Shown: positions 7,834 through 64,000, counted from the first letter of the stretch. The stretch: 64,000 bases of DNA from a virus (IMGVR_UViG_3300026522_000024:32001-96000); one strand, 5' to 3'. Notes: a model not told the origin generated them from the sequence alone. Numbers and translations are program-made.

Positions 7834-8601
7834 ATGAAAAAGACCTATGAAATGAACGGAAAGACTTATGCAACCCTGAGTGCTATTGCGAAGGAACTGG
7901 GAATTGCCCGCATTCGTTCCAATCAGCTGGACAAGTATGGCATCAAGAAAGTTACCTCTGATGACGTGAAGAAGGCTGACGACACTGTAGTTACCAATGA
8001 AGTTCCTGCTACTGTTGACGTTGCTGCAGACAAGGCAGACGACAAGGCAGACGACAAGGCAGACGACAAGGCAGACGACAAGGCAGACAAGAAGGTTGAT
8101 GCTCCTGCTACTACTGTTGACACCGCTACGGACAAGGCAGACGAAGCAGACAAGAAGGTTGATGCTCCTGCTAAGAAGGCTAAGACCACCAAGAAGGTTG
8201 TTAAGACTGGGACTGCTGAGGACATTGCTGAAGTCGAGAAAAACGTAGTTGACATGAACGCACGTGAGCTGGGCAAGGCAGTTACTAACTTTACGGTGGA
8301 TGCATTGGTAACCATGGTGAAGAATGTTGATGGCAACACCTGGGATTCCATCAAGAATGCTCCTATTCGTAAGATGCGTCTCATCATGGAACTCAAGAAG
8401 CAGTATTTCCCTGATGAAGTACGTCAGGCTGCTCCTGCTAAGGTGTCTCCTTGGAAGGCAATTACTACTGAGGTTTTGAAGAAGGCAGCTAAGAAGCAGA
8501 AGATTAGCTGGGCTGAGTGCGACAATGATAGCATTAACCGCATGCGTATTATCATGGCTCTGAAGAAGAAGGGAGTGCAGGCAGAGGATTTGAATAAGTA
8601 A
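7834..8601 (+). CDS. Lys/Ala-rich putative DNA-binding protein with DKAD repeats and two HeH-like C-terminal modules
   Basis: Strong RBS, strongly biased codons; IRKMRLIMELKK and INRMRIIMALKK modules. Confidence 0.75.
   Translation: MKKTYEMNGKTYATLSAIAKELGIARIRSNQLDKYGIKKVTSDDVKKADDTVVTNEVPATVDVAADKADDKADDKADDKADDKADKKVDAPATTVDTATDKADEADKKVDAPAKKAKTTKKVVKTGTAEDIAEVEKNVVDMNARELGKAVTNFTVDALVTMVKNVDGNTWDSIKNAPIRKMRLIMELKKQYFPDEVRQAAPAKVSPWKAITTEVLKKAAKKQKISWAECDNDSINRMRIIMALKKKGVQAEDLNK
8029..8088 (+). repeat. Tandem repeat (GACAAGGCAGAC)x5
   Basis: Five exact 12-bp units encoding DKAD. Confidence 0.95.
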
Positions 8602-9641: not shown

Positions 9642-10049
9642 ATGGCAACTATTGAAGAAATGATTAAGAATTCCAGCTGCTTTGGTGTAGCTTTTGATGG
9701 TTCTGTACGTGAGTGCAAAATTTGCGAGGTTAAACTGAAGTGTGAGAGCAAGTGCCGTTTGGGTGGGGATTCTAAGCCTGCATCAGTTAATGTGGCTACT
9801 GCAGATGAAGTTACTCACAGCAACAACAAGAAGGCAACCAATAAGAAGTCTGTTCCTGTTAAGAAAGCAGCAAAGCCTAAAGCTGAATATGCTGATGATA
9901 TGCCTGACTTCAAGTCTATGTCTGCTGATGAGATTGAGCAACTGGCAGAGGAACGTGGCATTGACATGTCTCAGTTTGAGAAGTATAAGGCAGCAAACAT
10001 CAGACGCATGCGTGTCACAATGGCTCTGAAAAAGACTTACGAAAAGTAA
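9642..10049 (+). CDS. Cys-rich Zn-binding + HeH-like domain protein
   Basis: CFG...ECKIC...C...C cluster; C-terminal LAEERGID...NIRRMRVTMALKK. Confidence 0.7.
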   Translation: MATIEEMIKNSSCFGVAFDGSVRECKICEVKLKCESKCRLGGDSKPASVNVATADEVTHSNNKKATNKKSVPVKKAAKPKAEYADDMPDFKSMSADEIEQLAEERGIDMSQFEKYKAANIRRMRVTMALKKTYEK

Positions 10050-47592: not shown

Positions 47593-48252
47593 ATGTGTGG
47601 AATCATTGGATTTATTAGTGATAAAGTAACAGAAAATCAGATGCACTGCCTAAAAACTGTAATGATTGAGAGCCGTATTCGTGGTATGCATGCCTCTGGA
47701 GTTGTGTATTACATAAACAATAAAAAGAAAAGCATGGTGATTCCAGAGCCCATAGATGTATTAGTGAAAAAGCTAGACTGGACATCCATGATAGGTTGTA
47801 AAGTGTCACTGATAGCTCATGCTAGATATAGCACCAGCGACATTAAGTACAATCAACCTATTATAGACAAAGATACTGGCATTGCCATAGTACATAACGG
47901 AGTGGTGTCTCAGTCACCACCAGAGCAGTGGGAGCAGCAATTTGGGTATAAGACTCAGACTAAGAATGACAGTGAACTGTTGTTGAGGTGTATAATAGAT
48001 GGCAAAGACCCATTAAAGGTATTTCCTGAATCTAGCATTGCTGCCTTGGTGCTGAATAAAGACCATTCCATAAGAGTTATCCGAAATGGATTGAGACCTC
48101 TGTGGACTGGAGAGGTAGAAGGTGCTAGAGTGTACGCCAGTACATTCGACATTCTCAGTAGAGCGAATATAGAGCCTCACAAGGTAGATTGCTCAGGAGT
48201 AGAGAAGCAGGTGTATTCTAACCACAATATAAGGACTCCAATTTTGATTTGA
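47593..48252 (+). CDS. Class II (Ntn) glutamine amidotransferase
   Basis: MCGIIG N-terminal Cys, RGMHASG, HARYST, NQP, HNG, DSE, RPL. Confidence 0.9.
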   Translation: MCGIIGFISDKVTENQMHCLKTVMIESRIRGMHASGVVYYINNKKKSMVIPEPIDVLVKKLDWTSMIGCKVSLIAHARYSTSDIKYNQPIIDKDTGIAIVHNGVVSQSPPEQWEQQFGYKTQTKNDSELLLRCIIDGKDPLKVFPESSIAALVLNKDHSIRVIRNGLRPLWTGEVEGARVYASTFDILSRANIEPHKVDCSGVEKQVYSNHNIRTPILI

Positions 48253-48263
48253 GGTGAAAACAC

Positions 48264-49229
48264 ATGGAAACAACAAGGGACAGGGTTTCACTGTTCATTG
48301 ATTTTTGTAGAAATAGCATCTATGCTCACGATGTAGACCCAGCAATCAACTACATGAACTATATAATCAGACGAATGGAATTGAATGAAGAGCAGGTCAT
48401 ATGGTTGTGCTTTCTATATGGTATAACGTATCAGCTGCCTACTGCTTGGGTTATTTGGAACGAAATGCCAGACCTAGAACTGGTAAATAAGGAAAGACTA
48501 ACGAAGTGGTTAACACCTGAAGTGCTCCATAGACTTCCATTCCAACAGGACAAAATAAAGTGTAGACCTAAGATGGCTGAGACGATACTCTCATATCAGT
48601 CCATAGTGGGTAAGTCTCAGGCAGAATACTTTGATAATCTGTTAGACAGTGATGACCCTCATGAGAATTTCTGGAGAATGTGGTCACCATTGAAGTCTAT
48701 ATACTGCTTTGGTAGGTTTTCCACATGGAATTTTTGTCAGGCTTTGAAGCATGTAGCAGGATATAATGTAGAGCCTACCATACTTATGATTGGTGAACCA
48801 GATAGTGTTTCCTTTACTGATGGGTTGGCTTATGCTTTCAATCAGGATGACAAGCTAACTAAGAAGGAAACCATAGGCAAGAAGAAGGTAAAGGTGTACT
48901 ACAAGTGGAGTGACCAAGAGAAAGATGACATGGAGCGTTCAGCACTCATACTGAAGAAGTCACTGAACCTAGATAACTTCCAGTTGGAGACATTGGCGTG
49001 TGCTTTCAAGAAGATATGGAGAACAGCAGACAGCAGGTACGTAGGATACTATAATGATAGAGCAGCAGACGACATCAAGAAAACTGCTTCTATGGGATGG
49101 AACGGAATAGACTGGAAACTGCTCTGGGATGCTAGACAAGCTACAATTCCACAGGAGTATATTCATGATAACAAGGGAGTCAATACCATGAACTTCAAGC
49201 TGGAACCATATCAGAAGGTATACACATAA
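48264..49229 (+). CDS. Amino-acid:DNA transferase (aGPT-Pplase2/AADT family)
   Basis: DVDP...WLCFLYG, FGRFSTW, LETLACAFKK, RYVGYYNDR motifs. Confidence 0.8.
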   Translation: METTRDRVSLFIDFCRNSIYAHDVDPAINYMNYIIRRMELNEEQVIWLCFLYGITYQLPTAWVIWNEMPDLELVNKERLTKWLTPEVLHRLPFQQDKIKCRPKMAETILSYQSIVGKSQAEYFDNLLDSDDPHENFWRMWSPLKSIYCFGRFSTWNFCQALKHVAGYNVEPTILMIGEPDSVSFTDGLAYAFNQDDKLTKKETIGKKKVKVYYKWSDQEKDDMERSALILKKSLNLDNFQLETLACAFKKIWRTADSRYVGYYNDRAADDIKKTASMGWNGIDWKLLWDARQATIPQEYIHDNKGVNTMNFKLEPYQKVYT

Positions 49230-49241
49230 GAGGTGTTATAA

Positions 49242-50909
49242 ATGAGCATTGAGCGTGTGCCCATAATCACTAGAATTAACACATCTGAAATAGAGGAACA
49301 GATGTGTAATAAATTCGCTGACCTATGGGCATTAAAATACAAGACAATTAAGGGCAAGCCTACTACATTTATTAGTAGTAATCCATTCAAGCATAGACCG
49401 TGGCAGTCAGCTATACTTAGGGATACTCACCCAAATAAAGTCATAGAGAAGTCAAGGCAGCTTGGTATGTCTGAAGTAGGACTATCAGAGGTTTTACACT
49501 TCCTTACTACTAAGGAAAATGTAAAGGCTATGTACATATTTCCTAGGAATCAACAGATGGTAGACTTTTCCAAGTCCAGAATAAAGCCAGTGTTACAAAC
49601 TCCATACTTTTTGGACAAAGTAGATAAAACTATGGACAGTGTCACTACCAAAAAGATATTGGATAATTGGTTATTCATGCGTTCTGGCTGGGAAGGTGCT
49701 ACTGGTGAGGGTGTTGATACTGATTTCTTAGCTATAGATGAGTATGACCGCATGAAGGATGGAGTGGAATTATCCTTCCAAGAAGGATTATCAGCCAGCA
49801 AGTACGGATACATGCGTAGGTGGAGTACTCCTTCCATTCCAGGTAGAGGTGTAAACGGTGCTATAAGTAAGTCTGACCAGATGAAGTATATTTGGACTTG
49901 TGAACACTGTGGTACTAAACAATTCCTTACGTTTGATGATAATCTCATTCAGGTCAATCCTAATGGTGTAAACTCTGCTACTCAGGAGATAGCTGATGGC
50001 ACTTTCATTATAGGATGTAAGAAGTGTAAAAAACCTATCAATAGAATGGGAATAGGAGAATGGGTGCCAATGTACCCATCTATTCATGAGGTTAGAGGGT
50101 ATCATATCAGCCAGCTTGATGCTGCTTGGATAAGTGCTGATAACATCATGAGACGTAGATTCAGCTACTCATCGAAGCAGTTGTTCTACAATTACGTTAT
50201 AGGAGAGCCATTTGCTTCAGAAGGAATCAAGATAACAGAAGCTGATATCAAGGCATCCATCCGCTTGGGACGTGAGCAAGTGGCTAGGACTTCAGCATAT
50301 GCTGCCATAGTAGCAGGTATAGACTGGGGTGACGTCAGCTACATGTGTATCCTAGGAGTAAAGAGCAACGGCGTAGTAGACTTGCTCAATCTTCATAGCG
50401 TACATGATGACAGTAAAGTACCTCTGAAAGCAGTTGCATACTTCTGTGCCATTCTTAGGTCATACCAACCTAACATAGTGGTAGCAGATGCTGGGTACGG
50501 TGCTGATAAAAATAGCTATGGGTATACACAATTCCCTGCTGCTTGGTATTCCTGCTACTGGACTACAAATAAAGACGCACACAGCAAAACCAGATTCATT
50601 GACCAATGGAATGAATCTTCCAGAGAGGTAACTGTAGATAAGACCTTATCTATACAGAGAGTGCTTCACTCTATAAAGGGGCATCTTATAGGGCTGTTCC
50701 CGTGGTGTGAGAAGATTGCTATGTTTACTCAGCACCTCAAAAATACGGTTATCATGGATGAAGAAAGTGATGGACTAGTATATAGCAGGGCAACTAGAGT
50801 TGGTCCAGACCACTACTGCTGTGCTTTAGCATATGGACTTATAGGTGTAAACAAGCTGACTAATTACAATATTAATGTCAATAACTCCACATCTGTAGAG
50901 TTTATCTAA
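49242..50909 (+). CDS. Terminase large subunit
   Basis: KSRQLGMSE, IDEYD, STP, CEHC/CKKC Zn site, GYHISQL, GIDWG, PDHY. Confidence 0.92.
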   Translation: MSIERVPIITRINTSEIEEQMCNKFADLWALKYKTIKGKPTTFISSNPFKHRPWQSAILRDTHPNKVIEKSRQLGMSEVGLSEVLHFLTTKENVKAMYIFPRNQQMVDFSKSRIKPVLQTPYFLDKVDKTMDSVTTKKILDNWLFMRSGWEGATGEGVDTDFLAIDEYDRMKDGVELSFQEGLSASKYGYMRRWSTPSIPGRGVNGAISKSDQMKYIWTCEHCGTKQFLTFDDNLIQVNPNGVNSATQEIADGTFIIGCKKCKKPINRMGIGEWVPMYPSIHEVRGYHISQLDAAWISADNIMRRRFSYSSKQLFYNYVIGEPFASEGIKITEADIKASIRLGREQVARTSAYAAIVAGIDWGDVSYMCILGVKSNGVVDLLNLHSVHDDSKVPLKAVAYFCAILRSYQPNIVVADAGYGADKNSYGYTQFPAAWYSCYWTTNKDAHSKTRFIDQWNESSREVTVDKTLSIQRVLHSIKGHLIGLFPWCEKIAMFTQHLKNTVIMDEESDGLVYSRATRVGPDHYCCALAYGLIGVNKLTNYNINVNNSTSVEFI

Positions 50910-51253: not shown

Positions 51254-53389
51254 ATGGCAATCTTAACAAAACATCAAATCAGCGAACTTAATGACAGAAT
51301 GTTGGGTCTTGGTGCTCCTGTACAGTTTGACGGCATCGGCTACAACAAGGTTGACTTCTCCAAGATGGAGAATCTTGGTGGGAATTACCACCTCACTGAC
51401 CGCCAAGCATGGTTCGTCTGCTTGACTCTGCGTAAGTACAAGAAAACTCAGCTGACCCAGTGGGCAGACGATATTGAGGAAAGCATTACTGCTTACGAAG
51501 GTGCTAAGACTGTTAAGGTCAACCCAGTAGAGGTAGTAGGTGTAAGTGATACTCAGGTTAGCTTGACTTGGGCATTTGACCGTAAGGTGAGTGACCAGCT
51601 GAAAGGTAAGCTGGACAACACTCAGTACAAATGGACTAAGCCTAATGGGACTTGGGTACTGAACGTGAACTGGGGATATGCTGAGACCATCAATCAGTCT
51701 TTTGTATCCTTGGGGCTGGATACCACTGCTCTGGTAAAGGCTATCCAGCAGTACAACAGCCAGCCTCACCCTGTTAAGGTACAGAGCAAGCCCCATACTG
51801 CTCACCAGATTGTTTTGGAAGTTAGCAGACTTCCTAAATCAGTGGACACCATTCAGATTAAGAGTGATTACGACAAAGCATTGGTATCTGCTTTCAAGTC
51901 TATTCCTAACATGTTCTGGGATAACAAGAAGAAGGTGTGGAACTGCTACATTGAAAATGCTGCTAAGTTGTATGATGCACTGCCTGATGGAGTAGTTGCT
52001 GACCAGTTGAAGCCTTGGGCAGACCTCACTAGGAACTGGAACAAGAAATACAACCTCTTAGACCTCAGCAAGCTCAACCTGAAATTCCAGCCATACTCCT
52101 TCCAGCCTGAAGATGCTCAGAGACTGATGAACCTCCAGACTGGTCTGAACGGAAATGAAGTAGGTTGCGGAAAGACTTTTGAGCAGGTTATCATTGGTGA
52201 ATCCATTCCTATGAAGAAACTGGTTATCTGCCCACCCACTCTTAGAGTAAACTGGGAAAGAGAAATCCACATGGTGAACGCAGATGCTGAAGTACATATT
52301 CAGTATTCCAATAAGCCTTACAAGTCCGTTGATGGCTGGAATATCATTGGTTATCATAGCCTTGATAAATTTCAGAAGCAACTGGAGAAAGAGCAGTATC
52401 AGGTTATCATGATTGATGAGGCTCACTTCATCCAGGCAGTTAACAATTATGGTAATCCTGACAGCAAGAGAGCACTCGCAGTCCTGCGGTTGGCTGCTAC
52501 TAGCCAGTATGTATTTCCTATTACTGGTACTCCTAAGACCAACAGAAACATCAATCTGTACAATATTCTCCGTGTTATCCGTCATCCACTTACCCGTGGG
52601 AACTGGGCATTTCAGAATTATGGTAAACACTTCTGCGATGGACAGAAAACTCAGTGGGGTTGGGACTACACTGGTAACAGCAATGACTCCGAACTCAATG
52701 AGCAGCTGAAGCCTGTTATGGTTAGACATCTGAAGAAGGATGTATTGCCTCACCTGAAGAAACAGCGTCAGGCTATCCCTGTAAGCGTAAACCTGTCTGA
52801 ATACCACTATCTCATCAGTGAGTATCTCAGGACTAGGAAGAACAAGAACAGTGAGTCCTTGGTACAGCTCAACAGAGCAAAGCAGGTTGTAGCTATTCAG
52901 AAGGCTCAGGAGTCCATAGCATTCGCTCAGGACATCATTTCTCAGGGTAAGAAGGTTGTTATTGTAACAGCATTCACTGAGGTAGTTGCTCAGGTTGAGA
53001 AGGCAATCAAGGGTTGCCTGAAGATTGTTGGAGGTATGAGCGATAAGGCTAAAAATGCAGCCATCGATGAATTCCAACATGGTACGGCTCAGGCTATTGT
53101 AATCAATATTGTAGCTGGTGGTACTGGTGTAACTTTGACTGCTGCTAGCACAATGATTGTAAACGATATACCCTGGACAACGGGAGAGTTAGAACAAGCA
53201 GAAGGACGCATCTGGCGTGGTGGTCAGAAGGAAACTGCTATGATTTACTACATTATGGCAGCTGGCTGTGAAATGGATGAAAAGTTGATTGACACTATTG
53301 TTTACAAGTCTCAGACTATTAATGCAGCTGTGGACGGTGGTGTTGGTGAAGAGTTAGACCTCAGAGCAATTCTGGAGGCAGAACTATGA
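51254..53389 (+). CDS. SNF2/HARP-like helicase
   Basis: GNEVGCGKT, DEAH, TGTP, GTGVTLT, QAEGRIWRGGQ; HARP-like N-terminal repeats. Confidence 0.9.
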   Translation: MAILTKHQISELNDRMLGLGAPVQFDGIGYNKVDFSKMENLGGNYHLTDRQAWFVCLTLRKYKKTQLTQWADDIEESITAYEGAKTVKVNPVEVVGVSDTQVSLTWAFDRKVSDQLKGKLDNTQYKWTKPNGTWVLNVNWGYAETINQSFVSLGLDTTALVKAIQQYNSQPHPVKVQSKPHTAHQIVLEVSRLPKSVDTIQIKSDYDKALVSAFKSIPNMFWDNKKKVWNCYIENAAKLYDALPDGVVADQLKPWADLTRNWNKKYNLLDLSKLNLKFQPYSFQPEDAQRLMNLQTGLNGNEVGCGKTFEQVIIGESIPMKKLVICPPTLRVNWEREIHMVNADAEVHIQYSNKPYKSVDGWNIIGYHSLDKFQKQLEKEQYQVIMIDEAHFIQAVNNYGNPDSKRALAVLRLAATSQYVFPITGTPKTNRNINLYNILRVIRHPLTRGNWAFQNYGKHFCDGQKTQWGWDYTGNSNDSELNEQLKPVMVRHLKKDVLPHLKKQRQAIPVSVNLSEYHYLISEYLRTRKNKNSESLVQLNRAKQVVAIQKAQESIAFAQDIISQGKKVVIVTAFTEVVAQVEKAIKGCLKIVGGMSDKAKNAAIDEFQHGTAQAIVINIVAGGTGVTLTAASTMIVNDIPWTTGELEQAEGRIWRGGQKETAMIYYIMAAGCEMDEKLIDTIVYKSQTINAAVDGGVGEELDLRAILEAEL

Positions 53390-53567: not shown

Positions 53568-54524
53568 ATGATAACACAGTTTGTAAACAAGGGTACAGAC
53601 TTAGAGGTGCTGAATAAGTCCTATGAATCTATGCCTCTGGAACAAGAAGAACTTGCTAAGGCACTAAAGAAAGATGGTCTTGTACTGGTTGATGTACAGG
53701 TAAATGGTAAGCATGGTACGTACACTCGTAAGCAGTGGAAGAAAGCTAGTGATGTAAAGAAGAATGAAGGAAAATCCTCTAAGGGTGCTCCAGATGCTGA
53801 TAAGCAGAAGGCTATTCCACAGGTTATTAAGGGTAAGCACATGAGTGACCTGAAGGATAATCTGAGGGAACATGGTCTTGTTTTGGACGGTGCATATGGC
53901 AGAAAGATACGTGATGACGAAGAAGTTATTATGTATGATAAAGATAAGAATACTTACACTGCTAAAGCTAATGTATACTCAGATGGTGGTGTAGAACTGC
54001 GTAAAATTACCAAAGAAAAGAAGGAAAAAACAGCAACTGATAATGGTAATGGCAAGCAACAGGATAGCGGCAGCCCATATCCAGACTACGTGAACAAGAC
54101 TAATGTTGGAGTACCTAAAGCACATAGTTCCTCCTATTTCTCTGAGAAGAAGGCAATTGAGTTTGCTAAGCAATTGCATGATAATGGTGCTACTAATATT
54201 GAGATTAGTAGTGCTGAAGATGCATTCAATCAGACTCAGTACCGTGTTGCTTGGGATAAGGAAGAAAAGAAACAGAGTGACACAAAGGCAGGTAATAAGC
54301 CTACCAAGAAAGCAGCTGCTACTTCAAAAGTTAAACAGGATTCTTCATCTAATGTAAGTGTTCCTAAGACCAAAGCAGACATTCAAAGCATGCTTGCTTC
54401 TGGTAAATCCAGAAATGATATTATTGAGCTGGCTAAGAAGTCAGGCATCAGCTGGAAGGAAAATGGCCACGAAGGCATCAACTGGATGAGGTGCTGCATG
54501 GCTTTGACTAAGGCATCTAAATAA
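53568..54524 (+). CDS. Leader-bearing Lys-rich protein with C-terminal HeH-like module (putative virion-internal protein)
   Basis: FVNKGTD...LAKALKKDGLV..VQVNGKHGTYTRKQW leader; GINWMRCCMAL. Confidence 0.65.
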   Translation: MITQFVNKGTDLEVLNKSYESMPLEQEELAKALKKDGLVLVDVQVNGKHGTYTRKQWKKASDVKKNEGKSSKGAPDADKQKAIPQVIKGKHMSDLKDNLREHGLVLDGAYGRKIRDDEEVIMYDKDKNTYTAKANVYSDGGVELRKITKEKKEKTATDNGNGKQQDSGSPYPDYVNKTNVGVPKAHSSSYFSEKKAIEFAKQLHDNGATNIEISSAEDAFNQTQYRVAWDKEEKKQSDTKAGNKPTKKAAATSKVKQDSSSNVSVPKTKADIQSMLASGKSRNDIIELAKKSGISWKENGHEGINWMRCCMALTKASK

Positions 54525-54543
54525 AGAGAAGGAGTGAGTAATA

Positions 54544-55047
54544 ATGGAACTGCATCCATTCACCAGAGCAGCAGCCTTGGCTGTTCTTATAGGAAACGAT
54601 TTTTGGTACATGCATCTGTATGCTAAGGATGAAGACTTTGATAAATCACATCAGCTTACTGGTAATTACTATGACAGGTTAGGCTGGGAAAGTGATGAAC
54701 TTATGGAACTGTCCATAGAGGTCGGTGCTGAAGTATTCAATCCCTCTGAGGTAGGTAAGTGGTTGCCTGAGTACACTCCAGAGAGTGATAAGGCTTACAG
54801 CTATGGAACAATTGTAACCAAAGCACAGGAAAAGCTCAGATTGTACCTTACAGCACTCAAAGCAATGAGAGATTCTACCAGCCGTACAGATATACAGTCT
54901 AGGCTGGATGAGTGCCTGCGTTACTGGGAGAAGGAACTCAACTACAAGTTGGCAGCCAGAGCAGGTCAGGCTGGTGTACCTTCTATGCTAGTTGGCTTTG
55001 TTAACTCAGGTTTGGATAACGAACTTGCGTACAAATTTGCTGAATAA
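54544..55047 (+). CDS. Dps/ferritin-like protein
   Basis: MHLYAKDEDFDKSHQL...YYD...SDELME follows the Dps H-x-F-x-H...D...E pattern. Confidence 0.7.
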   Translation: MELHPFTRAAALAVLIGNDFWYMHLYAKDEDFDKSHQLTGNYYDRLGWESDELMELSIEVGAEVFNPSEVGKWLPEYTPESDKAYSYGTIVTKAQEKLRLYLTALKAMRDSTSRTDIQSRLDECLRYWEKELNYKLAARAGQAGVPSMLVGFVNSGLDNELAYKFAE

Positions 55048-55090
55048 CCAGATATTATCATACAGAAGTACACCAGACTCAATCATATAA

Positions 55091-55318
55091 TTGGAGGTAA
55101 GAGAAATGTTTAAGATAAAGCGTTGGAATAACAAGTACGGAAACGCAGCTAAGTTTGTTGTTTTCGATGAGAAAGCTGACAAGTATGCTGAGTTTTCACC
55201 ATCCAATCCCAAGGATATTGCTTGGGTGTCCAGTGATATCACTAAGAATCCAGAGTACAAGTCCTGGGATGACTGGAAGGACGAACCAGTAGATAATCTT
55301 GGTGATATCATCATGTAA
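55091..55318 (+). CDS. Hypothetical protein (probable start 55106)
   Basis: RBS GGAGGT. Confidence 0.6.
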   Translation: MEVREMFKIKRWNNKYGNAAKFVVFDEKADKYAEFSPSNPKDIAWVSSDITKNPEYKSWDDWKDEPVDNLGDIIM

Positions 55319-55332
55319 AGGACTGATAGGTA

Positions 55333-56421
55333 ATGCATTTTATAAACAACCAATCAGACATCAATACTATCAATTTCCTGTCTAAGTCTATACCAATGGA
55401 AACCATGGAAAAGGCACTAGATAGAACTGGTCTTGTACAGAAAGAGGTACAGTACAAGACCAGTACAGGAAAGATAGCTACTAGGAAGCAGTGGGTAAGA
55501 GAAGGAGAGGAACAGACTGCTGTTAAACCTCCTAAAAAGCAACCTAGACCGCAAGTTGAGGCTACTGACCACAACATAACGGAAAAGACTGCTCACCTGA
55601 AACCTCTTCAGGAAGGAGAAAAGCTGCCTGATTACTTTACTGGAGAGCATGCAGTACCTCCTAACTGGAGGAAGGTTATGTACAGTCCAGACCCAAATGC
55701 TAATCTGTTAGCTATAGGTAAGGATGGACAGAACAGAACTGTATACTTGTACCATAAGGACTTTGTAGCTAGCAAGTCCAACGAGAAGTTTAGCAGAGTC
55801 AGAAACTTGATGAAAAACCGTGACAATATCCTTAATTCAATTAAGGAGTTGAAAGAATCCAACCCAGAGGTGTCTGACTGCCTTAATCTTATATTCCATA
55901 TGGGTACTAGACCTGGCAGCACAGCAGACACCAAGTCAGTGAAGGAAGCACGTGGGGCTACAACACTGAAGGGTGAGAACGTGGTTGTGGAAGGTGACAA
56001 TGTATACCTAGATTTCACAGGAAAGAAGGGTGTAGCACAGCGTCACAAGGTTACTGATTCCTACCTGAAGACTATGCTAGTACAGCGTAAAAAGAAGGCA
56101 GGAGACAATGGTGACCTGTTCAATACCACGGATGACCAGCTTAGAAAAGCACTGAAACCTCTTGGACTTCACCCAAAAGATTTACGTACTATGTTAGCCA
56201 CTCATATGGCTAAGCAGATGCTCAAAGACCTTCCTGTAGCGAATAACGCAAAGGAAATGACTAAACTGCGTAACCAAGTAGGTGACAAAGTCTGCTCTGT
56301 ACTAGGTAATCAGCGTACAATGGCTTTGAATAGCTACATAGACCCAGAAGTATTCATAGCTCATAGCCCAGACGGCATGAGTGACTGGAAGTCAAATCAA
56401 TCCAAGAAGAAGGTGAAATAA
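55333..56421 (+). CDS. DNA topoisomerase IB with N-terminal leader
   Basis: PPNW...GKDGQNR..YLYH, RPGS, GATTL, FTGKKG, KDLRT, LGN.....NSYIDP (catalytic Tyr). Confidence 0.9.
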   Translation: MHFINNQSDINTINFLSKSIPMETMEKALDRTGLVQKEVQYKTSTGKIATRKQWVREGEEQTAVKPPKKQPRPQVEATDHNITEKTAHLKPLQEGEKLPDYFTGEHAVPPNWRKVMYSPDPNANLLAIGKDGQNRTVYLYHKDFVASKSNEKFSRVRNLMKNRDNILNSIKELKESNPEVSDCLNLIFHMGTRPGSTADTKSVKEARGATTLKGENVVVEGDNVYLDFTGKKGVAQRHKVTDSYLKTMLVQRKKKAGDNGDLFNTTDDQLRKALKPLGLHPKDLRTMLATHMAKQMLKDLPVANNAKEMTKLRNQVGDKVCSVLGNQRTMALNSYIDPEVFIAHSPDGMSDWKSNQSKKKVK

Positions 56422-56422
56422 C

Positions 56423-56566
56423 ATGAACTTAGACAACCTTACACCTGAGCAAATGACTCAAATGATGAAAGATTCTCTAAAACAACCTACAAAACCTATG
56501 ACACAGGAAGAGAAAGAGCAGGATGACGCAGAGCATGGTTATTTCCAAGAACCAGAACAGGAGTAA
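56423..56566 (+). CDS. Small acidic hypothetical protein (47 aa)
   Basis: ATG 2 nt after the Topo IB stop; RBS AAGGTG. Confidence 0.55.
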   Translation: MNLDNLTPEQMTQMMKDSLKQPTKPMTQEEKEQDDAEHGYFQEPEQE

Positions 56567-56578
56567 CGTAACATTGCG

Positions 56579-56898
56579 ACATGTGAATCCTTGAAAACTT
56601 TACATAAGTCAAAAATTGAAGGCATAGCTTTACATACAGCTGTGCCCTCTACTTTTATCTACTGGAACTGTAGATATGTGGTAAAATCACATCATGAAAT
56701 ACTTGACCGAAAATTTTTTTCGGTTGCCTTTTTTAACGTAAAAGAGTAAAAAAGTAAATAACCTTAATTTAATAAAAATACTAAGTTTCTTGTAAAATAA
56801 AAAGAATTAACCTTCTTTTTTACTAACGTAAAAAAGAACAGCACTTGCTGTTTTTACATGTGAATACTTGAATCTTTTTCATAAGCCAGAAAACTGAT
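56579..56898. repeat. Imperfect ~42-bp direct repeats in an AT-rich gene-free region (possible ori)
   Basis: ACATGTGAATCCTTGAAAACTTTACATAAGTCAAAAATTGA vs ACATGTGAATACTTGAATCTTTTTCATAAGCCAGAAAACTGA. Confidence 0.6.
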
Positions 56899-57020
56899 AT
56901 GTAAACCTCAAAAAATTCTATGAATAGATGATACACATTATGCAGGGTTCTGATTCACTATCCTTTGTAAAATGTACAGTTTTTACTTGAAAAATTTTAT
57001 ATGAACTTTATTTTTTCTAC

Positions 57021-57049
57021 TTTACTCTTGGGATGAAAAGAGATATAAT
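57021..57049 (+). promoter_or_regulatory. sigmaA-type (early) promoter
   Basis: TTTACT-17 bp-TATAAT with ATGAAA in the spacer. Confidence 0.72.
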
Positions 57050-57107
57050 GTTTTTAGGAACACCTTATGTAAACCACAAAGCAGTTGAGTGAAAAGGAGA
57101 GATTGCT

Positions 57108-57836
57108 ATGAAGAGTACAGAATTGAAAGAAAAGCTAGACAAAGCTATTGAAAGAGTCCACAAGATTGAGGGTACTATTGAGAGGCATAAGAAGCAGGCA
57201 GACAAAAAGCTCACGGAACTGAAGAAACATAACTGGTCTGATAATCCTATGGACCACTCAGGTACTGGAAACCACGAAGCATACTGGTTAGCTTGTGAAT
57301 ATCAGGATAAGCTGAGTGACATGAAGAATTCACAGAAAAATCTGATTAAGGCTCAAGAAATAGCTAAAAACTGGGAGGACAAGTACAACAAGCAGCTGGA
57401 ACTAGAAAGACATTATCAGTTTGAGATACCTGAAGCCTTTAAGACATTGAAGGATATACTTGTAGAGAACTGGACTAAATTCGACTTAGAAGAACAGAAA
57501 CACTACTATAAGAAATACAAAGAGTTAGGGTACAAAACCTTCATCCAGCGTTATAGCAGGAGCAGATGGGACTACCTCAGAAGCCATAATGAACAAGATT
57601 TCAGAGAAGAAAATGAGAAAGCTGCAGAAAACTGGATTTTAGACCTGTATAATAGAATCAAGAGAGAAACAGGAGAGATTGTTACTTGGGATAACATCAC
57701 AGCAACTCCTAAAGGATTGAACGGATACATAAAAGGAAAGTTGGGAGCAGTCAACGTAGAGACCATTATGGCTGGTGGATATAACATCCAGAGACTTCAT
57801 TACAGAGTAATTCTTCATAAGGTAAAGGAGGCATAA
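57108..57836 (+). CDS. Conserved phage hypothetical protein
   Basis: Coiled coil plus GLNG...VETIMAGGYNIQRLHYR. Confidence 0.75.
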   Translation: MKSTELKEKLDKAIERVHKIEGTIERHKKQADKKLTELKKHNWSDNPMDHSGTGNHEAYWLACEYQDKLSDMKNSQKNLIKAQEIAKNWEDKYNKQLELERHYQFEIPEAFKTLKDILVENWTKFDLEEQKHYYKKYKELGYKTFIQRYSRSRWDYLRSHNEQDFREENEKAAENWILDLYNRIKRETGEIVTWDNITATPKGLNGYIKGKLGAVNVETIMAGGYNIQRLHYRVILHKVKEA

Positions 57837-58179
57837 CTCAGATGAAAAATAACTGGAGAGTAGTTATCTATGATGACTCTATGAACACAGGTTGTACAGC
57901 AACTAAGGTATTCATGGATAACCTTAACAAAACCACCGCTAAGAAGATTGAGCGTTACATGAATCACAAGATGGAAGAGACAGAAATGTTTGATATCAGC
58001 TATGTAGCTGAAGAAGTGGCGTAATAACCTGCTGAGGTGAACCTTCAGACGGTTGATACTGGAAGGCAGCTGGGTGGTTTAGACATGTGGGCTGACCCAC
58101 CCAGTTGATGATAACCAGATTGATACTGAATGTTTGGAACCATATAGCAGAGATTCCTCACACTAAGGGGGTAACAACA

Positions 58180-60036
58180 ATGAAAGACTATAAAAATCAG
58201 ATAGCTGAATTGAAAGCAGACGTACACACCATCTGGAAACTGCAATGTCAGAACCTTTACAACAGCAAAAACCTTGGAGCATTGGCTGTACGTGAGTGCC
58301 TTCAGAATAGCATTGACGCTATAAGGACTGCTGAGAAGAACGGTGACATCGCTCAGGGTGAAGGATACATCAATATCAGCTGGGAGGGCAGCAACCTTAT
58401 TATTGAGGATAATGGAGTAGGGATGAACCTTCAGACCTTACATGACAAGTTTCTAACCCTTGGTGGGACTACTAAGGGTGATGAGAGTAATGTAGGCGGA
58501 TTTGGATTAGCTAAATCAGTTATCCTTGGATGCGGCAGTGGATTTAAGGTAGAAACCCAGGATAATGTGTTTACCAATGAAGACCTTGGTGTTAATCCTA
58601 TACAGAAACAGGATTACAGACAAGGCACACGCATTACCTTGAAGAACGTACAAGTTGGTAAGGGTAAGAGCATAGAAGATGATTCCGATAGATTTAAATA
58701 CGCTGTATACGATTATGTATTCACCAGCCAGATTCCTGAAGACATTAAGGTTACTGTAAATCATAAGGACTATGACTCCTATAAGAGATTTGTTCAGACT
58801 TCTTCTACTAGACGTGCACCTGCTGTATTTAACATTGGTAAAGACATCATACCAAAGAACACTAAAATCAGAGTAAATGTGTATAAGACCGCCAAGAATG
58901 ATTTCTCTGGATACCTGTATGTTAGACTGAGAGGACTGACCCAATTCAAGCAATACCTTAGCTGGAATGCTACTTTTCATGTAGTGCTTGATATAGACAC
59001 TAAGTTAGACCCACGTGACGTAGACTATCCATTCAGCACTAATAGAGAAGGACTGAAAGCACAGTATCAGGGTATTCTCTCAGCTATATCAGATAAGGTT
59101 AGTCAGTCACCAATTGCTATCTCAGACCACTCTAACTACAAGGAAACCTTCTATGATAACAAGACCAGCAATGCTGAGCGTAATAGAGTAATTGTTTCTC
59201 AGTTGATTTCTAAGGACTTGATGAAGGCTGCTAATACCGTATCTAAGGCAGTAGCTGGTATGATACCACAAGGAGGTTACACTGTTCCTTCTGTAGCTGA
59301 GAAAATTCAGCAACTAAATGAAGTAGTAGAGAAGGTAGCACACGAATGTGGTAGGACTAAAGATGAAGTGGTCAATGGTTTGAGCACCGAAAATCTTCAG
59401 TCTTTGAACAATCCGTTGGATTACTCTTGGATTGTATGGCAGGATAAGGATACTCATGTTAAGAGGATAAACAGCAGCACTCAGGTCAGCTTTATATTGG
59501 CTTGGGACAGCATCCTGAGATTGATGGCTAGCCATTCTCCTGAGTTGAATGGAAAAACCTTCTACCCTGGTATCATCGTTAGGAAAGATTACATGGGATT
59601 GTGCTTAGAAAAGAACATAGCTTCTTGTGGCACTAGACACTACATTATGATGAATCCATATTTGATTCCTAATGACGATGACCTGTCTATAGCCTTATAT
59701 TTGATGAACTTGGCATCACACGAACTTGCTCATTTAGCTTGCGGAACATATGAGGCTCACGGTGAGACATTCTCCTATACTAGAGAATCCATCATGAATC
59801 ACAATTTGGTTAACGTGAATGCTGTAATGAAGATGCTGCGTAGCATGGGATTTAAGAAACTTCTCAATAAAGTAGAGCAGAAGAAGCAGTCTGAGGATTA
59901 TTCTTATTTTACTTTGGACGACATTGTTGATATGGCAGAGAATAAGGGAATTGATGTACAGCAACTACAGGATAAGTATAGCAATCAACAGATTCTTAGG
60001 ATGAGACTCATAATGGCTATCAAAAAAGCAGGTTAA
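58180..60036 (+). CDS. GHKL (MORC/Hsp90-like) ATPase with HExxH zincin-like and HeH-like domains
   Basis: RECLQNSIDA, EDNGVGM, GGFGLAK, GTRI; HELAH...EAH; ILRMRLIMAIKK. Confidence 0.8.
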   Translation: MKDYKNQIAELKADVHTIWKLQCQNLYNSKNLGALAVRECLQNSIDAIRTAEKNGDIAQGEGYINISWEGSNLIIEDNGVGMNLQTLHDKFLTLGGTTKGDESNVGGFGLAKSVILGCGSGFKVETQDNVFTNEDLGVNPIQKQDYRQGTRITLKNVQVGKGKSIEDDSDRFKYAVYDYVFTSQIPEDIKVTVNHKDYDSYKRFVQTSSTRRAPAVFNIGKDIIPKNTKIRVNVYKTAKNDFSGYLYVRLRGLTQFKQYLSWNATFHVVLDIDTKLDPRDVDYPFSTNREGLKAQYQGILSAISDKVSQSPIAISDHSNYKETFYDNKTSNAERNRVIVSQLISKDLMKAANTVSKAVAGMIPQGGYTVPSVAEKIQQLNEVVEKVAHECGRTKDEVVNGLSTENLQSLNNPLDYSWIVWQDKDTHVKRINSSTQVSFILAWDSILRLMASHSPELNGKTFYPGIIVRKDYMGLCLEKNIASCGTRHYIMMNPYLIPNDDDLSIALYLMNLASHELAHLACGTYEAHGETFSYTRESIMNHNLVNVNAVMKMLRSMGFKKLLNKVEQKKQSEDYSYFTLDDIVDMAENKGIDVQQLQDKYSNQQILRMRLIMAIKKAG

Positions 60037-60112
60037 CACGGATTTGGCGGCAGTACATACTGCCGCCTTTATTTATATTATTTACTATATGTGTTTGAAA
60101 GGTGTGTGGAAT

Positions 60113-60328
60113 ATGCCTAAGATTATAATTGAATCCTCTGATAAGAGAGATACACAAGTAGATATAGAGGAAAAGCTAGAAAAGGCAGTGTCTGCCATTA
60201 GAGAACAACGTGAAGGAAAGCAATTTACAGACAATTTTCTTAGGGAAACTAAGGAAAAAGCTGATGTAGTAGTCAATAAGTTGTTTTCTAACATGGTCAA
60301 GGAAATCAATGAAGTATTAGCGAAATGA
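60113..60328 (+). CDS. Hypothetical protein
   Basis: ORF containing LEKA. Confidence 0.6.
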   Translation: MPKIIIESSDKRDTQVDIEEKLEKAVSAIREQREGKQFTDNFLRETKEKADVVVNKLFSNMVKEINEVLAK

Positions 60329-60337
60329 GGGAAAACC

Positions 60338-61462
60338 ATGGGAATCAACTTTGTAGATAAAGGCTCAGACTCAGCTCTAGTCAATCTTCTTCATGAAGAC
60401 TACTTGAAAAAGTCATTTCATCGTGAAGGATTGACTCCAGTTAGAGTGTCTGTTAATGGAAAACATGGTAATTACACTACTACTGTGTATAAGAATCTAA
60501 ATGAACACGGAAAGCAGGTCAGTAAAAACAAGCCTAGATTCAATCCTGATAAGGGTAAGAACACAGCTAGTAAGCTACAGAATAAGGACTTTATGTACAT
60601 GAATACAGCTACTGGTGATATATTATCACTGGATGAGGTAAAACGTGAGTACAATCAACTTCCTGAAAAGGAAAAGAAATCACATAAAACTCTTGATAGT
60701 TACCTAAAATCCACTTATTTTATTTCAAATGGAACTAACAAGACTTGTGATATGTACAGGATTGCTCCTGGCAAGTACACTAAGGAAAGAACACAGGCAG
60801 TCCATGAACCCATAGTACAAGATTATCTATCTAAAGCACAGGATGCTCCAGAAGATACCCCACCAATACTTTTCTTGTATGGCGGTGGAAGCGGCGTAGG
60901 CAAGTCCACAATAGTCAACTCTATAGTGAAGCCTATGTCTGATGAGTTAGGAGTAAACCTACTCAAAGTAGACTGTGATGACATTAAGGAGTTGCTTCCA
61001 GAGCATGAAATGTTTATGGCTCAAGATGAGCGTACTGCTGCTGGTAGGTTACACAGAGAATCTTCAGATATTACCAATAAGGTAATAGATGAGCTCACTA
61101 AGGCTAAAAAGTGCTTTGCATATGATGGTTGCATGGGAGACACTTCTAAGTACCAGAAAATTATCAATAAAGCTAGAGATAATGGATATTACGTACATAT
61201 CATAGCAGCAGATATTCCAGTAGATATGGCTATTGCTCGTGCTAAATCAAGGAGCAGAAAGATTGATGACGCTATATTCCATAAGACTCATACTGCTTTT
61301 GGAAATAATTTTTTGGATATAGCAGGGATGGCTGATTCGTTTGCGCTGTATGACAATTCTCAGGATAGTAATTTGCCACCTACATTAATTGTAGATGATA
61401 CTGGAATACGCAATGAAGAACTTTATGAGCGTTTTCTTATGAAAACAGATGGGGAGGCATAA
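60338..61462 (+). CDS. Zeta-toxin-like P-loop kinase with N-terminal leader
   Basis: YGGGSGVGKST, VDCDDIKELLPE, HRESS, YDG, RAKSR, LYDN. Confidence 0.8.
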   Translation: MGINFVDKGSDSALVNLLHEDYLKKSFHREGLTPVRVSVNGKHGNYTTTVYKNLNEHGKQVSKNKPRFNPDKGKNTASKLQNKDFMYMNTATGDILSLDEVKREYNQLPEKEKKSHKTLDSYLKSTYFISNGTNKTCDMYRIAPGKYTKERTQAVHEPIVQDYLSKAQDAPEDTPPILFLYGGGSGVGKSTIVNSIVKPMSDELGVNLLKVDCDDIKELLPEHEMFMAQDERTAAGRLHRESSDITNKVIDELTKAKKCFAYDGCMGDTSKYQKIINKARDNGYYVHIIAADIPVDMAIARAKSRSRKIDDAIFHKTHTAFGNNFLDIAGMADSFALYDNSQDSNLPPTLIVDDTGIRNEELYERFLMKTDGEA

Positions 61463-61464
61463 AT

Positions 61465-61629
61465 ATGAGCACTAAGACCTTTAATAAAGAAAACATTGTA
61501 GCCTTGCGTAAGAAATATGAGAAAAACCCTGTTCAGCAAGATTTTGCTAACGACAAGTCAGTGTTTGAGTTTCCAGATGACATAACTGATGAGGAACTGG
61601 ATAAACACATTGAGAGAATGAAATCATAA
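61465..61629 (+). CDS. Small hypothetical protein (54 aa), candidate antitoxin
   Basis: ATG 3 nt after the kinase stop; RBS GGGGAGG; acidic C-terminal half. Confidence 0.6.
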   Translation: MSTKTFNKENIVALRKKYEKNPVQQDFANDKSVFEFPDDITDEELDKHIERMKS

Positions 61630-61648
61630 TAATTGGAGGAGATAAATC

Positions 61649-64000
61649 ATGATAAGGACTACAGATATTGCTTCCTATCTTGTAGACAAGGCTAAGTTAG
61701 ACCTAATGGGTGGTAGCTCCAATCTGGAAAAAGCACAGAGAGATTATTCTAAGCTGGTAAAGGTGCGTAGACCAGTAACACGTAAGGGTAAGACCTTTAT
61801 GCAAGACATATGGGTGCTGCCAGGTCAGGTTAAGTCATCAGATGTGGTTCTTCAGAACAAGCATAATGTCATTCCTTCTCTTAGTAGCCTCACTAAGCCA
61901 TCTGCTGGTATTTTGGATATGAAGTATTTTGCTGCTTTGGAGAACACTGATAGAACTAAAGCAATGGATTACTTGAAAGACCTTGGATTTACATGGAAGG
62001 TAAATAGCAATCCTAGTATAAACTGGATGTGGGCTAAGAGTGCTCTTAATAAATTCCTGAATGCTAATCCTTCTTTTAAGACCACCGCAGGTTCAATTTC
62101 TGGGTTGGTAGGTGGTCAGACTCAGGTTACTTCTCAGGCAACCAACGTAACAACGCAAATTGCTCAGAATAAGACACCTTCTACGGTGAATACGGCAACC
62201 ATGATGTCTTCTTTTACGCCTCAGCAGCAAGCAGAGATTAATGCTTGTGCTAATGGTAAAGAAAAATTCTCTAAGATTCGTGAAATTCTTGGTAAAGATG
62301 GAGTGATATCTTGGGCGAAGGCTAATGGTATTACTTGGAATGAGCATGCTCATAATGCTATTAATCTTATGAGACTTGGTATGGCTGTTAGGGAATGCTT
62401 TGATGCTATAAATGGGACAGTGTCTCCTGGTCCAATATCTAAGACTCCTACTAAGAAACAGCCTGCACCTGCTGCTCCTAAAATAGACCCAGATGAACTG
62501 CCTGTGCCTGCTAATGCTACAGAGCGTACTAAGAATTTGATTAAACACATAAATAACATGACAAGTGTAGCTGAGATTACTGATTGTACTAAGATGGGTA
62601 TGGTTCCAGAAGATGATGTAGCTAAGTCGTTTATTCTTGAGAAATTCCTTCCTTCATTTAAGTTATGGGTAGGTGGTGGTGCTCCTAAATCTGTTAAGGA
62701 TAAATGGGCAAAAGATACTGGTTCTAGTGCTTCTTCTATAAATACTTATGCTAAGACTCCATGTGATTGGGGTGAGAGAGCAGTAGATACTATGAAGTTG
62801 GCTGGGTATAAAAAAGATATGGCTTCACATAATATTAGTATCTCTTTTTCTGGATTTACTATGGGTAAAATGCTTTCTCCTAGACAATACATGGTATTTA
62901 AAGACCACAATAAAATGCTGCATTTTGGTAAATCATCAGAAAAGCCATTTGATATTATCAACAGCTTGAATGATACTTATTCTGACTATACAACCGATGA
63001 TTACAAAACTACTGACTCTTGGGGTACTACCATTAACCTCTACCCAACTAATCTTGGATATACTGGTTTAGACCCAGCTGAATACAGGAAAAAGTACAAT
63101 ATAGAAAAAGAAGGTTTTGTTAGATACCTCAGAAGAGTGCAAAAATCTAATCCAGGTTTGAGTTCTACAGTTCAGGAAATGATAACTACGTATGATGAGA
63201 CTATGAAATTGGCTGGATATAATCCTAATTTGCTTTCATATGTTCAGAAAAATGATTGGGATGATACAGCTCAACCTACATACTGGTCTTCAAGATTTGA
63301 TAGTAGTTTAAGGTTAAATAATTTTTCTCCAGCTGATGCAAAAAAAGCTGTAGAAATCATAGAATTACAGTATAACACAGTTATTTCTGAATTAGAAAAA
63401 GCTGGTTATTCACAACAGGTTATTGCTGATACCTTGGGTTACAAATGGGGTTCAGGCTATCTTGATAACTTTAAGGTAGTTGATAGAAGTTCAGGTTCTA
63501 CCTCCACTCTTGCTACTCTAAATATAGCTAATTTGTTACCAGATGAAGCTAAAAGATGGAATTACGCAGCAGCTTCATATGCTTATTGCAGATACTGCAA
63601 GGAAAACGGTATAGAAAATAAATCTGGTAATGGGACAAAAGAGTATGCTTGGTTGGAGCAGGTAAAGCAATTATCTCAGATGGATAAAGTTACATATGAA
63701 AAGATTAACTCTAATTTAGAGAAACTGTATGGCTTTAGCAATAATAATGGCGTAATACAACCTACAGATAACAAGGACTATGACTCAATTTGGAGTAACC
63801 TTATTTTAACAAGTAATATGGTTGATATGCACCACAAAATGGCAGTTTCAGCTAGAAGTAATACTGCTAGTCCCTTGAATAAAAGGGGAACAGAATATCA
63901 AGGTAATTATGATTATTATAGTGGTATGGCTATGAAAGATGATGCTAAAATGCGTATAAAGCAGTATGGTAACTATACTGGGAGTACTGCTTCTACGTAT
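61649..64000 (+). CDS. Large leader-bearing protein with two HeH-like modules, runs off the window
   Basis: RBS GGAGGAG; MIRTTDIASYLVDKAKLDLMGGSSNLEKAQRDYSKLVKVRRPVTRKGKTFMQDIW; no stop seen to the window end, hence absent from the ORF track. Confidence 0.85.
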   Translation, partial: MIRTTDIASYLVDKAKLDLMGGSSNLEKAQRDYSKLVKVRRPVTRKGKTFMQDIWVLPGQVKSSDVVLQNKHNVIPSLSSLTKPSAGILDMKYFAALENTDRTKAMDYLKDLGFTWKVNSNPSINWMWAKSALNKFLNANPSFKTTAGSISGLVGGQTQVTSQATNVTTQIAQNKTPSTVNTATMMSSFTPQQQAEINACANGKEKFSKIREILGKDGVISWAKANGITWNEHAHNAINLMRLGMAVRECFDAINGTVSPGPISKTPTKKQPAPAAPKIDPDELPVPANATERTKNLIKHINNMTSVAEITDCTKMGMVPEDDVAKSFILEKFLPSFKLWVGGGAPKSVKDKWAKDTGSSASSINTYAKTPCDWGERAVDTMKLAGYKKDMASHNISISFSGFTMGKMLSPRQYMVFKDHNKMLHFGKSSEKPFDIINSLNDTYSDYTTDDYKTTDSWGTTINLYPTNLGYTGLDPAEYRKKYNIEKEGFVRYLRRVQKSNPGLSSTVQEMITTYDETMKLAGYNPNLLSYVQKNDWDDTAQPTYWSSRFDSSLRLNNFSPADAKKAVEIIELQYNTVISELEKAGYSQQVIADTLGYKWGSGYLDNFKVVDRSSGSTSTLATLNIANLLPDEAKRWNYAAASYAYCRYCKENGIENKSGNGTKEYAWLEQVKQLSQMDKVTYEKINSNLEKLYGFSNNNGVIQPTDNKDYDSIWSNLILTSNMVDMHHKMAVSARSNTASPLNKRGTEYQGNYDYYSGMAMKDDAKMRIKQYGNYTGSTASTY

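Follow-up and report, generated by a model that had tools for sequence, protein, structure and literature searches.

Four proteins encoded in a 64,000-nucleotide stretch of viral DNA (the window, which is bases 32001-96000 of the single 116,104-bp contig IMGVR_UViG_3300026522_000024) begin with related N-terminal leaders of about 65 residues, and we propose, on sequence grounds, that this leader is probably a handle by which injected effectors are loaded into the capsid and processed. The phage itself is, to judge from its genes, an uncultured and distant member of the SPO1/Herelleviridae kind, because its major capsid protein (MCP) is 59% identical to SPO1 gp6.1 (PDB 9vel is matched with E=3e-169) and because portal, protease (phrog_1028), scaffold and MCP genes, identified by PHROG matches, follow one another in SPO1 order. 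All the components of a Herelleviridae-type head module were therefore found in the right order, including an S78/U35 protease, orthologs of which carry a Peptidase_S78 annotation. The leader-bearing proteins, which we refer to as A, TopoIB, the Zeta kinase and D, are as follows, with arrows marking the predicted cleavage sites.

53568-54524, plus strand: protein A, 318 amino acids, made up of leader, low-complexity K/S/D-rich middle and C-terminal SPO1-gp51-like module
53568-53765, plus strand: leader of A, residues 1-66, with helix 10-20 and helix 26-33, the latter with LAK31↓A32L
53679-53744, plus strand: beta-hairpin of the A leader, residues 38-59
55333-56421, plus strand: TopoIB, a type IB topoisomerase with leader, 362 amino acids (Topoisom_I 3e-15, Top1B_N_bact 3e-6)
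55333-55518, plus strand: leader of TopoIB, residues 1-62; LSK18↓S19 and MEK27↓A28L precede the hairpin
60338-61462, plus strand: Zeta-toxin-family P-loop kinase with leader, 374 amino acids (Zeta_toxin PF06414 8.4e-22, residues 165-325)
60338-60535, plus strand: leader of the Zeta kinase, residues 1-66; LKK25↓S26F precedes the hairpin
61649-64000 (window part), plus strand: protein D, 1199 amino acids in the genome, ending 1248 nucleotides past the window
61649-61849, plus strand: divergent leader of D, residues 1-67; LEK28↓A29Q, then the hairpin KLVKVRRPVTRKGKTFMQDIWV

A sequence-only reading of this DNA had claimed that four open reading frames (ORFs) begin with related leaders, and had named the significance of the leader alignment and a hidden Markov model (HMM) search as checks. 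We found that the N-terminal ~65 residues of A align significantly by BLASTP with those of TopoIB (E=1e-7) and of the Zeta kinase (E=2e-9); outside the first ~65 residues these three proteins do not align. The N-terminus of D was missed both by BLASTP and by an HMM built from the A, TopoIB and Zeta leaders only, and this failure of direct pairwise search would be in keeping with a chance or compositional resemblance of N-termini that share no function. However, a 53-sequence HMM identified bridging orthologs, matching the N-termini of a 1067-residue PARP protein in the related locus L001 (E=6e-8) and of a 1164-residue protein in L003 (E=4.6e-3). Moreover, when four D-type N-termini were compared with sixteen A/B/C-type leaders (where B is TopoIB and C the Zeta kinase) in a profile-profile alignment with hhalign, 40 co-linear columns were aligned with E=1.7e-5 and a probability of 78%. 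On the strength of the bridging orthologs, the hhalign result and the N-terminal position, D is accepted as a divergent member, and all four leaders as one family by sequence.

To the HMM searches no further ORF of the 116-kb genome carries the leader, and outside the genome the family is large. Searching 1.84 billion representative proteins with a leader profile (alignment A3) gave 484 clusters with E<=1e-3, 194 of them reaching E<=1e-10, and a best value of E=1.9e-24. Together with the pairwise and hhalign values, this refutes chance resemblance, and the claim of four related leaders stands. At the DNA level the leaders have drifted apart and differ at many synonymous positions, so that conservation is at the level of the protein and selection acts on the peptide. 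Recent gene conversion, considered as a source of the likeness, was ruled out by this divergence.

The family is defined by its position as well as by its sequence: the first copy of the leader starts no more than 45 residues from the N-terminus in 187/187 proteins fetched, and the carriers span 110 to 1500 amino acids. Six proteins of 1043-1502 amino acids have one or two extra internal copies of the leader core, and every internal copy is preceded by D-L-x-K-[A/G], as at the N-terminal copy. Behind the leader we found TopoIB, Zeta toxin, SPO1-gp51-like (PF26856), PARP, ART-PolyVal, InPase, glutamine deamidase (Gln_amidase), RadC/JAB, DUF6582, DUF3626, DUF5661 and CBM_4_9 bodies, along with many that have no family match; by their family assignments the fused bodies look like typical injected or 'polyvalent' effector domains. 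Within the window, TopoIB has the catalytic core domain of type IB topoisomerases and an active-site tyrosine context, SYIDP, near its C-terminus, and the Zeta kinase has an intact Walker A motif (GGGSGVGKST), in line with its assignment by sequence to the Zeta toxin family. A, TopoIB and the Zeta kinase each have a single body, whereas D is composed of leader, two SPO1-gp51-like modules and a large body for which Pfam/PHROG-type annotation gave no family match, and has no recognised enzyme domain. The modular fusion of the leader to different domains that had been proposed is thus strongly confirmed by the range of bodies and the 484 clusters; the companion claim that the C-terminal domains are unrelated holds in that the bodies differ, but not fully, as A and D both carry the SPO1-gp51-like module. 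The leader itself has no Pfam model, and PHROGs gave only a single weak match, to a PHROG of unknown function. We also noted that in a 135-kb relative (L001:15555-18758) the large leader protein has an ADP-ribosyltransferase domain of the PARP type, which parallels Alt of T4.

Since many of these bodies are toxins, the leader might instead be an inhibitory or chaperone-binding propeptide that keeps toxic enzymes inactive, or attached to a small partner protein, in the producing cell until its removal, with loading, if any, taking place by other means, for example through the gp51-like module or through a MuF-like candidate encoded beside the portal gene. Small ORFs tightly coupled to cargo genes, such as a 54-amino-acid ORF after the Zeta gene that is kept in L001 and L003, would fit this explanation, as would the match of the leader to a head-protease site (see below), which could serve activation by cleavage. 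However, the leader is also found on A, which does not look toxic and lacks an enzyme domain, and its carriers range in length from 110 to 1500 amino acids; it is unlikely that a single propeptide would inhibit folds as different as these. Because the prohead protease cleaves inside proheads, a propeptide would in any case be compatible with packaging and so more an addition to it than a rival; as an explanation in its own right we consider it distinctly unlikely.

Across 184 distinct leaders the L, K and A/S positions of the L-x-K-[A/S] site are conserved at 94%, 99% and 96%, respectively, the lysine being as conserved as the hairpin G and W. The sites read ELAK↓AL in A, MEK↓AL in TopoIB, LKK↓SF in the Zeta kinase and LEK↓AQ in D. 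The peptide upstream shows conservation too (in A/B/C-type leaders F is kept in 84% and D in 88%, and D-type leaders read FYIDL), although less strongly than the hairpin, and the leader of A has a second upstream motif, VLNK17↓S18. These sites are of the same type as those of the MCPs, which align as AELNK-ALNTG in this phage, DALNK-ALEAG in SPO1, EDVVK-SFQTG in a kayvirus and EDALK-SFTTG in a Listeria phage. The kayvirus MCP precursor (..VVK24↓S25FQTG) is represented by a 463-residue chain in PDB 5lii, and the mature capsid chain in PDB 9row/9rox/9roz has 439 residues and starts exactly at S25. As the mature kayvirus chain starts at S25 and the MCP sites align, the head protease of this kind of phage very probably cuts after lysine, at hydrophobic-x-K↓[S/A].

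The scaffold protein gives a similar picture. In the scaffold of this phage the motif [LIVMF]-x-K-[SA]-[LIVMFYQ] occurs 8 times against 0.39 expected from composition, a 20-fold over-representation, and the scaffolds of SPO1, L003, CP-51 and the kayvirus show the same excess; the motif is also present in the protease itself and at the N-terminus of the portal protein. The observed/expected ratio is 6.8 for head proteins, 4.4 for the cargo cluster (the genes between terminase and portal) and 1.39 for the rest of the genome. Our search of the accessible literature returned nothing usable on the cleavage specificity of SPO1-type prohead proteases. It can also be seen that a further K-A pair lies in W-V-K-A, and because this directly follows the hairpin, excision of the whole leader is a conceivable possibility.

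As a separate observation, the prohead protease has in its C-terminal part a repeat of the N-terminal arm of the MCP, with the K↓[A/S] site included (L005:7140-7910 compared with L005:8925-10367; also L006 and L007). In this phage the two segments, DIEKALEAGH..ESLESAFKTLSY in the protease and ELNKALNTGA..ESLENSLKVLTF in the MCP, match by BLASTP with E=0.02, and the likeness is far clearer by eye in the kayvirus and SPO1. Judging from the alignment, this repeat may be how the protease gets built into the prohead.

Gene order is a further line of evidence. A single strand of the genome carries all the large ORFs, and the cargo cluster is bounded by the large terminase gene upstream and by the portal gene, which lies just past the window end. 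The order is TerL, SNF2/HARP, A, a 167-amino-acid protein, TopoIB, a 242-amino-acid protein, GHKL ATPase, Zeta kinase, the 54-amino-acid ORF and D, followed by a 103-amino-acid protein, a 281-amino-acid protein and then portal, protease, scaffold and MCP. The features that surround the leader genes in the window are as follows.

49242-50909, plus strand: large terminase subunit, the upstream boundary of the cluster (GpA_ATPase in orthologs)
51254-53389, plus strand: SNF2/HARP helicase, without leader, directly after the terminase
54544-55047: 167-amino-acid protein after A, without leader, weakly matching PHROG 3636 'DNA binding protein' (E=2e-4)
58105-60036, plus strand: GHKL-type ATPase, without leader, its C-terminus weakly gp51-like
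61465-61629, plus strand: 54-amino-acid ORF, starting 3 nucleotides after the Zeta gene

Scans for related loci returned 1 locus in viral contigs and 13 in metagenomes. Wherever a related locus had enough flank to show its neighbours, its leader genes shared one orientation and were placed between TerL/SNF2 and the series 281-amino-acid protein, portal, protease, scaffold and MCP; this placement in the head cluster was seen in L001, L003, L010, L011 and L012. There are four leader proteins in the present genome, and 4-5 in each of L001, L003 and L010. Neither megablast of the region nor tblastn with the A leader gave a match among phage records; a consensus-like leader query detected the core, and the core only, in CP-51, JL, Shanette, vB_EalM-132 and S4-1. 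These are cultured Spounavirinae. In Bacillus phage CP-51 the core is present in gp27, gp28 and gp30, whose genes come immediately before that for the portal, the JL equivalents being gp86, gp87 and gp89; the same search placed it in Shanette and Bacillus phage S4-1, and the leader gene of Exiguobacterium phage vB_EalM-132 is the next one after the terminase gene. The GenBank notes for JL contain no proteomic flags. The placement of the leader genes among head genes is strongly confirmed by these loci.

The phage has a contractile tail, with sheath and tube genes downstream in SPO1-like order, and N-terminal packing domains are known on the payloads of extracellular contractile injection systems (eCIS), so one could envisage that the leader is an eCIS-payload-like packing signal by which the proteins are loaded into or onto the tail or neck. 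This is very improbable: the leader genes lie upstream of the portal gene and outside the tail module, the match to the protease site points to the interior of the prohead, where the protease acts, and the lumen of a phage tail is occupied by the tape-measure protein.

The beta-hairpin that had been proposed to follow the site is supported by structure prediction. An AlphaFold2 run on a 25-sequence leader alignment (mean predicted local distance difference test score, pLDDT, 69) gave short helices at residues 10-20 and 26-33, a 10+10-residue hairpin at 38-59 (pLDDT about 90) and a short helix, with the predicted cleavage site at the end of helix 2. Going by this model, such a long isolated hairpin suggests pairing with the sheet of a partner, or oligomerisation.

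The hairpin also raises the question of whether the leader is a common functional domain, a small helix-plus-beta-ribbon unit, that is never packaged and that brings its enzymes to one target in the cytoplasm of the producing cell, be it the ribosome, RNA polymerase or DNA (perhaps hypermodified phage DNA). Binding to nucleic acid, or addition to the sheet of a partner, is common among long two-stranded ribbons, and here the hairpin is basic (TRKQWVK) and the best conserved part of the leader; furthermore, TopoIB and the neighbouring SNF2 and GHKL proteins are DNA enzymes, and the gp51-like module occurs in a non-head gene (7834-8601) as well. Nevertheless, a shared target gives no reason for the N-terminal place of the leader in 187/187 proteins, for its restriction to genes between terminase and portal, or for the constant presence of a near-invariant head-protease site ahead of it, and Zeta kinase, PARP/ART, pyrophosphatase and glutamine deamidase bodies have no common DNA target. 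We therefore regard this explanation as unlikely.

A number of points do weigh against capsid loading. No virion proteomics, N-terminal data or packaging assay was found for any leader carrier in the accessible literature. The best-studied relatives, SPO1, the kayviruses and the A511-like Listeria phages, were without the leader family in the searches made, and the SPO1 gene order includes no cargo cluster of leader genes. Within the cluster itself the SNF2 helicase and the GHKL ATPase have no leader; they may not be packaged, or may take another route. A high-GC soil-metagenome leader (L022:2652-2840; also L023) has A-A-L in place of x-K-A in an otherwise typical hairpin leader, a variant that, to judge from its sequence, is either cut by a protease of another specificity or not cut at all. 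The leader has no fold match, with nothing in the PDB below E=1.9 and no usable match in the ESM Atlas. The T4 analogy is imperfect, since the T4 address precedes the cut and is lost on cleavage, whereas the most conserved part of the leader lies downstream of the cut. Finally, the motif was defined after the leaders had been seen, and the enrichment in the cluster falls to about 3-fold once the six leader sites are subtracted. A position-specific scoring matrix (PSSM) built from scaffold K[SA] sites only and scored over 33,584 windows placed leader sites at ranks 30 and 54 and the MCP site at rank 51, and non-head proteins of the genome contained about 30 sites that scored just as well. Given this low specificity, the cleavage motif was rejected as stand-alone evidence, and L-x-K-[A/S] is meaningful only in combination with its conservation and its position. 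What remains of the earlier claim that L-x-K-[A/S] is a maturation cleavage site is its conservation and its agreement with MCP and scaffold sites (S25 of 9row; 8 against 0.39 in the scaffold); as a motif alone it is weak. Taken as a whole, the earlier interpretation is supported in part, by comparative evidence.

Despite these points we infer that leader proteins are incorporated, cleaved, retained and injected. Late in infection A, TopoIB, the Zeta kinase and D would be made alongside the head proteins, and the leader would bring each into the assembling prohead, the address lying in either the upstream peptide or the hairpin. The prohead protease, while degrading the scaffold at many [L/I/V]-x-K↓S sites and trimming the MCP at LNK↓A, would also cut the leader at its near-invariant L-x-K↓[A/S]. 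The processed enzymes would remain in the filled head, exit through the tail with the DNA and act at once in the new cell, in host takeover or counter-defence. The giant relatives would be cut into several cargo units, because site plus hairpin recurs at internal module borders. More tentatively, site plus hairpin may serve a large clade of SPO1-like phages with Gram-positive hosts as a general 'cut-and-load' handle, such that any protein carrying it could be built in, cut and injected.

The closest parallel is the capsid-targeting sequence (CTS) of T4, which is carried by IPI-III and Alt and is removed by gp21 at L/I-x-E (Mullaney & Black 1996 via PMC9024508, PMC12991175). In both cases an N-terminal tag is found on unrelated proteins of one phage (four here). 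The T4 tag ends in a site of the phage's own prohead protease, and the leader carries a candidate for such a site; an ADP-ribosyltransferase is part of the cargo in T4 (Alt) and of the putative cargo here (the PARP and ART-PolyVal bodies among leader proteins). The outcome proposed is also the same, namely proteins that are packaged, trimmed and injected, which for the leader is inferred from sequence. On the other hand, the two tags have no sequence homology, the protease is S78/U35 HK97-like and not gp21, the leader would be cut after Lys and the T4 tag after Glu, and the leader is ~65 amino acids long with a folded hairpin downstream of the cut, whereas the T4 tag is ~10 amino acids and lies wholly upstream. 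By this comparison the leader system is analogous, not homologous, to the T4 CTS.

Another parallel is offered by the P1 Dar proteins, large anti-defence enzymes whose genes lie beside those for portal and protease. An N-terminal signal takes them into the head, from which they reach the host together with the DNA; the N-terminal 30 residues of DarB suffice for capsid targeting (PMC9024508). The P1 signal, however, is known on a single protein and works only with helper Dar proteins that act in a set order, whereas the leader is common to hundreds, and there is no homology. Polyvalent proteins, as described by Iyer et al. 2017 (PMC5512222), are predicted to be packaged and injected and are encoded beside portal and terminase genes. 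ART-PolyVal PF18760, InPase PF18823, PARP, SNF2 and peptidase/deamidase-type toxins are all found among the leader proteins or their neighbours, in the same portal/terminase/head gene context, and several of the bodies behind the leader count as signature domains of polyvalent proteins. Polyvalent proteins combine several (2-15) effector domains in one polypeptide, which A, TopoIB, Zeta and D do not; the domains of this window are mostly in separate genes, each with its own leader, and it is the giant relatives with 2-3 leader copies that approach the polyvalent architecture. Zeta toxin and SPO1 are not mentioned in the accessible text of PMC5512222, and tying such proteins to one specific protease site goes beyond that text.

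A constant N-terminal module joined to variable C-terminal domains in the head gene cluster is also the design of the MuF polymorphic toxins. The MuF module, of SPP1 gp7 type, has about 250 amino acids, binds the portal and is fused to variable toxins. The leader is by contrast an element of 40-65 amino acids with a protease site, and the MuF-like candidate of this phage is a separate 281-amino-acid gene beside the portal gene, with no Pfam MuF match. MuF fusions are mentioned in PMC5512222. For the giant phages SPN3US and phiKZ, the available portions of the sources (PMC10052503, PMC7411985) describe propeptide-bearing ejection or inner-body proteins that mass spectrometry showed to be cut by the prohead protease; a short consensus marks the sites at which many head-internal proteins are processed, and these proteins enter the host by ejection. 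As far as those portions go, the protease and motif are different from ours and the propeptides are not one homologous domain; cleavage of the leader is a prediction only.

A second small helical module, G-I-[ST]-W...I-N-x-M-R..M-A, accompanies the leader, and precomputed annotation assigns it to PF26856 Phage_SPO1_gp51 for A and its relatives. There are 127 copies among 187 leader proteins, and those found in the window are as follows.

54405-54518, plus strand: module in A, residues 280-317 (module HMM E=9e-23)
61946-62059, plus strand: first module in D, residues 100-137 (module HMM 3e-12)
62294-62401, plus strand: second module in D, residues 216-251 (module HMM 3e-13)
7834-8601: non-head 255-amino-acid protein, module at residues 217-245 (module HMM E=8e-9)

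Weak matches were also seen at the GHKL C-terminus (59986-60030) and at 9642-10049, and the L003 ortholog of the SNF2 helicase ends in a C-terminal gp51-like module. The SNF2 helicase of the window (51254-53389) is itself rich in the K↓[S/A] motif (5 observed, 0.78 expected). Small ORFs are closely coupled to cargo genes at 61465-61629, 60110-60328 and L005:4262-4573; the first of these is the 54-amino-acid ORF, which is present at the same place in L001 and L003 and for which antitoxin or chaperone are guesses. The 281-amino-acid protein (L005:4580-5425), just before the portal gene and beyond the window end, is kept beside the portal in L001, L003, L011 and L012. Its C-terminus contains CPKC...HPNCMC, which we took to be a signature of MuF/SPP1-gp7-type minor head proteins; Pfam did not support this, since no MuF model matched the protein even at E<=5. 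Just 5' of the terminase gene, this group of phages has DNA-hypermodification genes (ADDT/aGPT-Pplase-type, with a glutamine amidotransferase; L001:2300-3259 and window 47593-49229).

We found no description of the leader in the literature searched. Experiments have defined capsid-targeting signals for only a handful of phages, namely T4 and, for one protein, P1, and none of these signals is a searchable sequence family. If our interpretation is true, the leader would let the cargo carried by the whole SPO1-like clade be read from sequence alone, that cargo including DNA topoisomerase IB, Zeta-type kinases and ADP-ribosyltransferases, and the 'polyvalent protein' idea would gain a concrete mechanism of loading and cutting. 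Should the general 'cut-and-load' reading hold, foreign proteins could be loaded into these capsids with nothing more than the handle. In that case the phages would deliver a changeable arsenal of topoisomerase, Zeta kinase, ADP-ribosyltransferases and deamidases ahead of gene expression, and the leader offers a testable handle on protein delivery by phages of Gram-positive bacteria.

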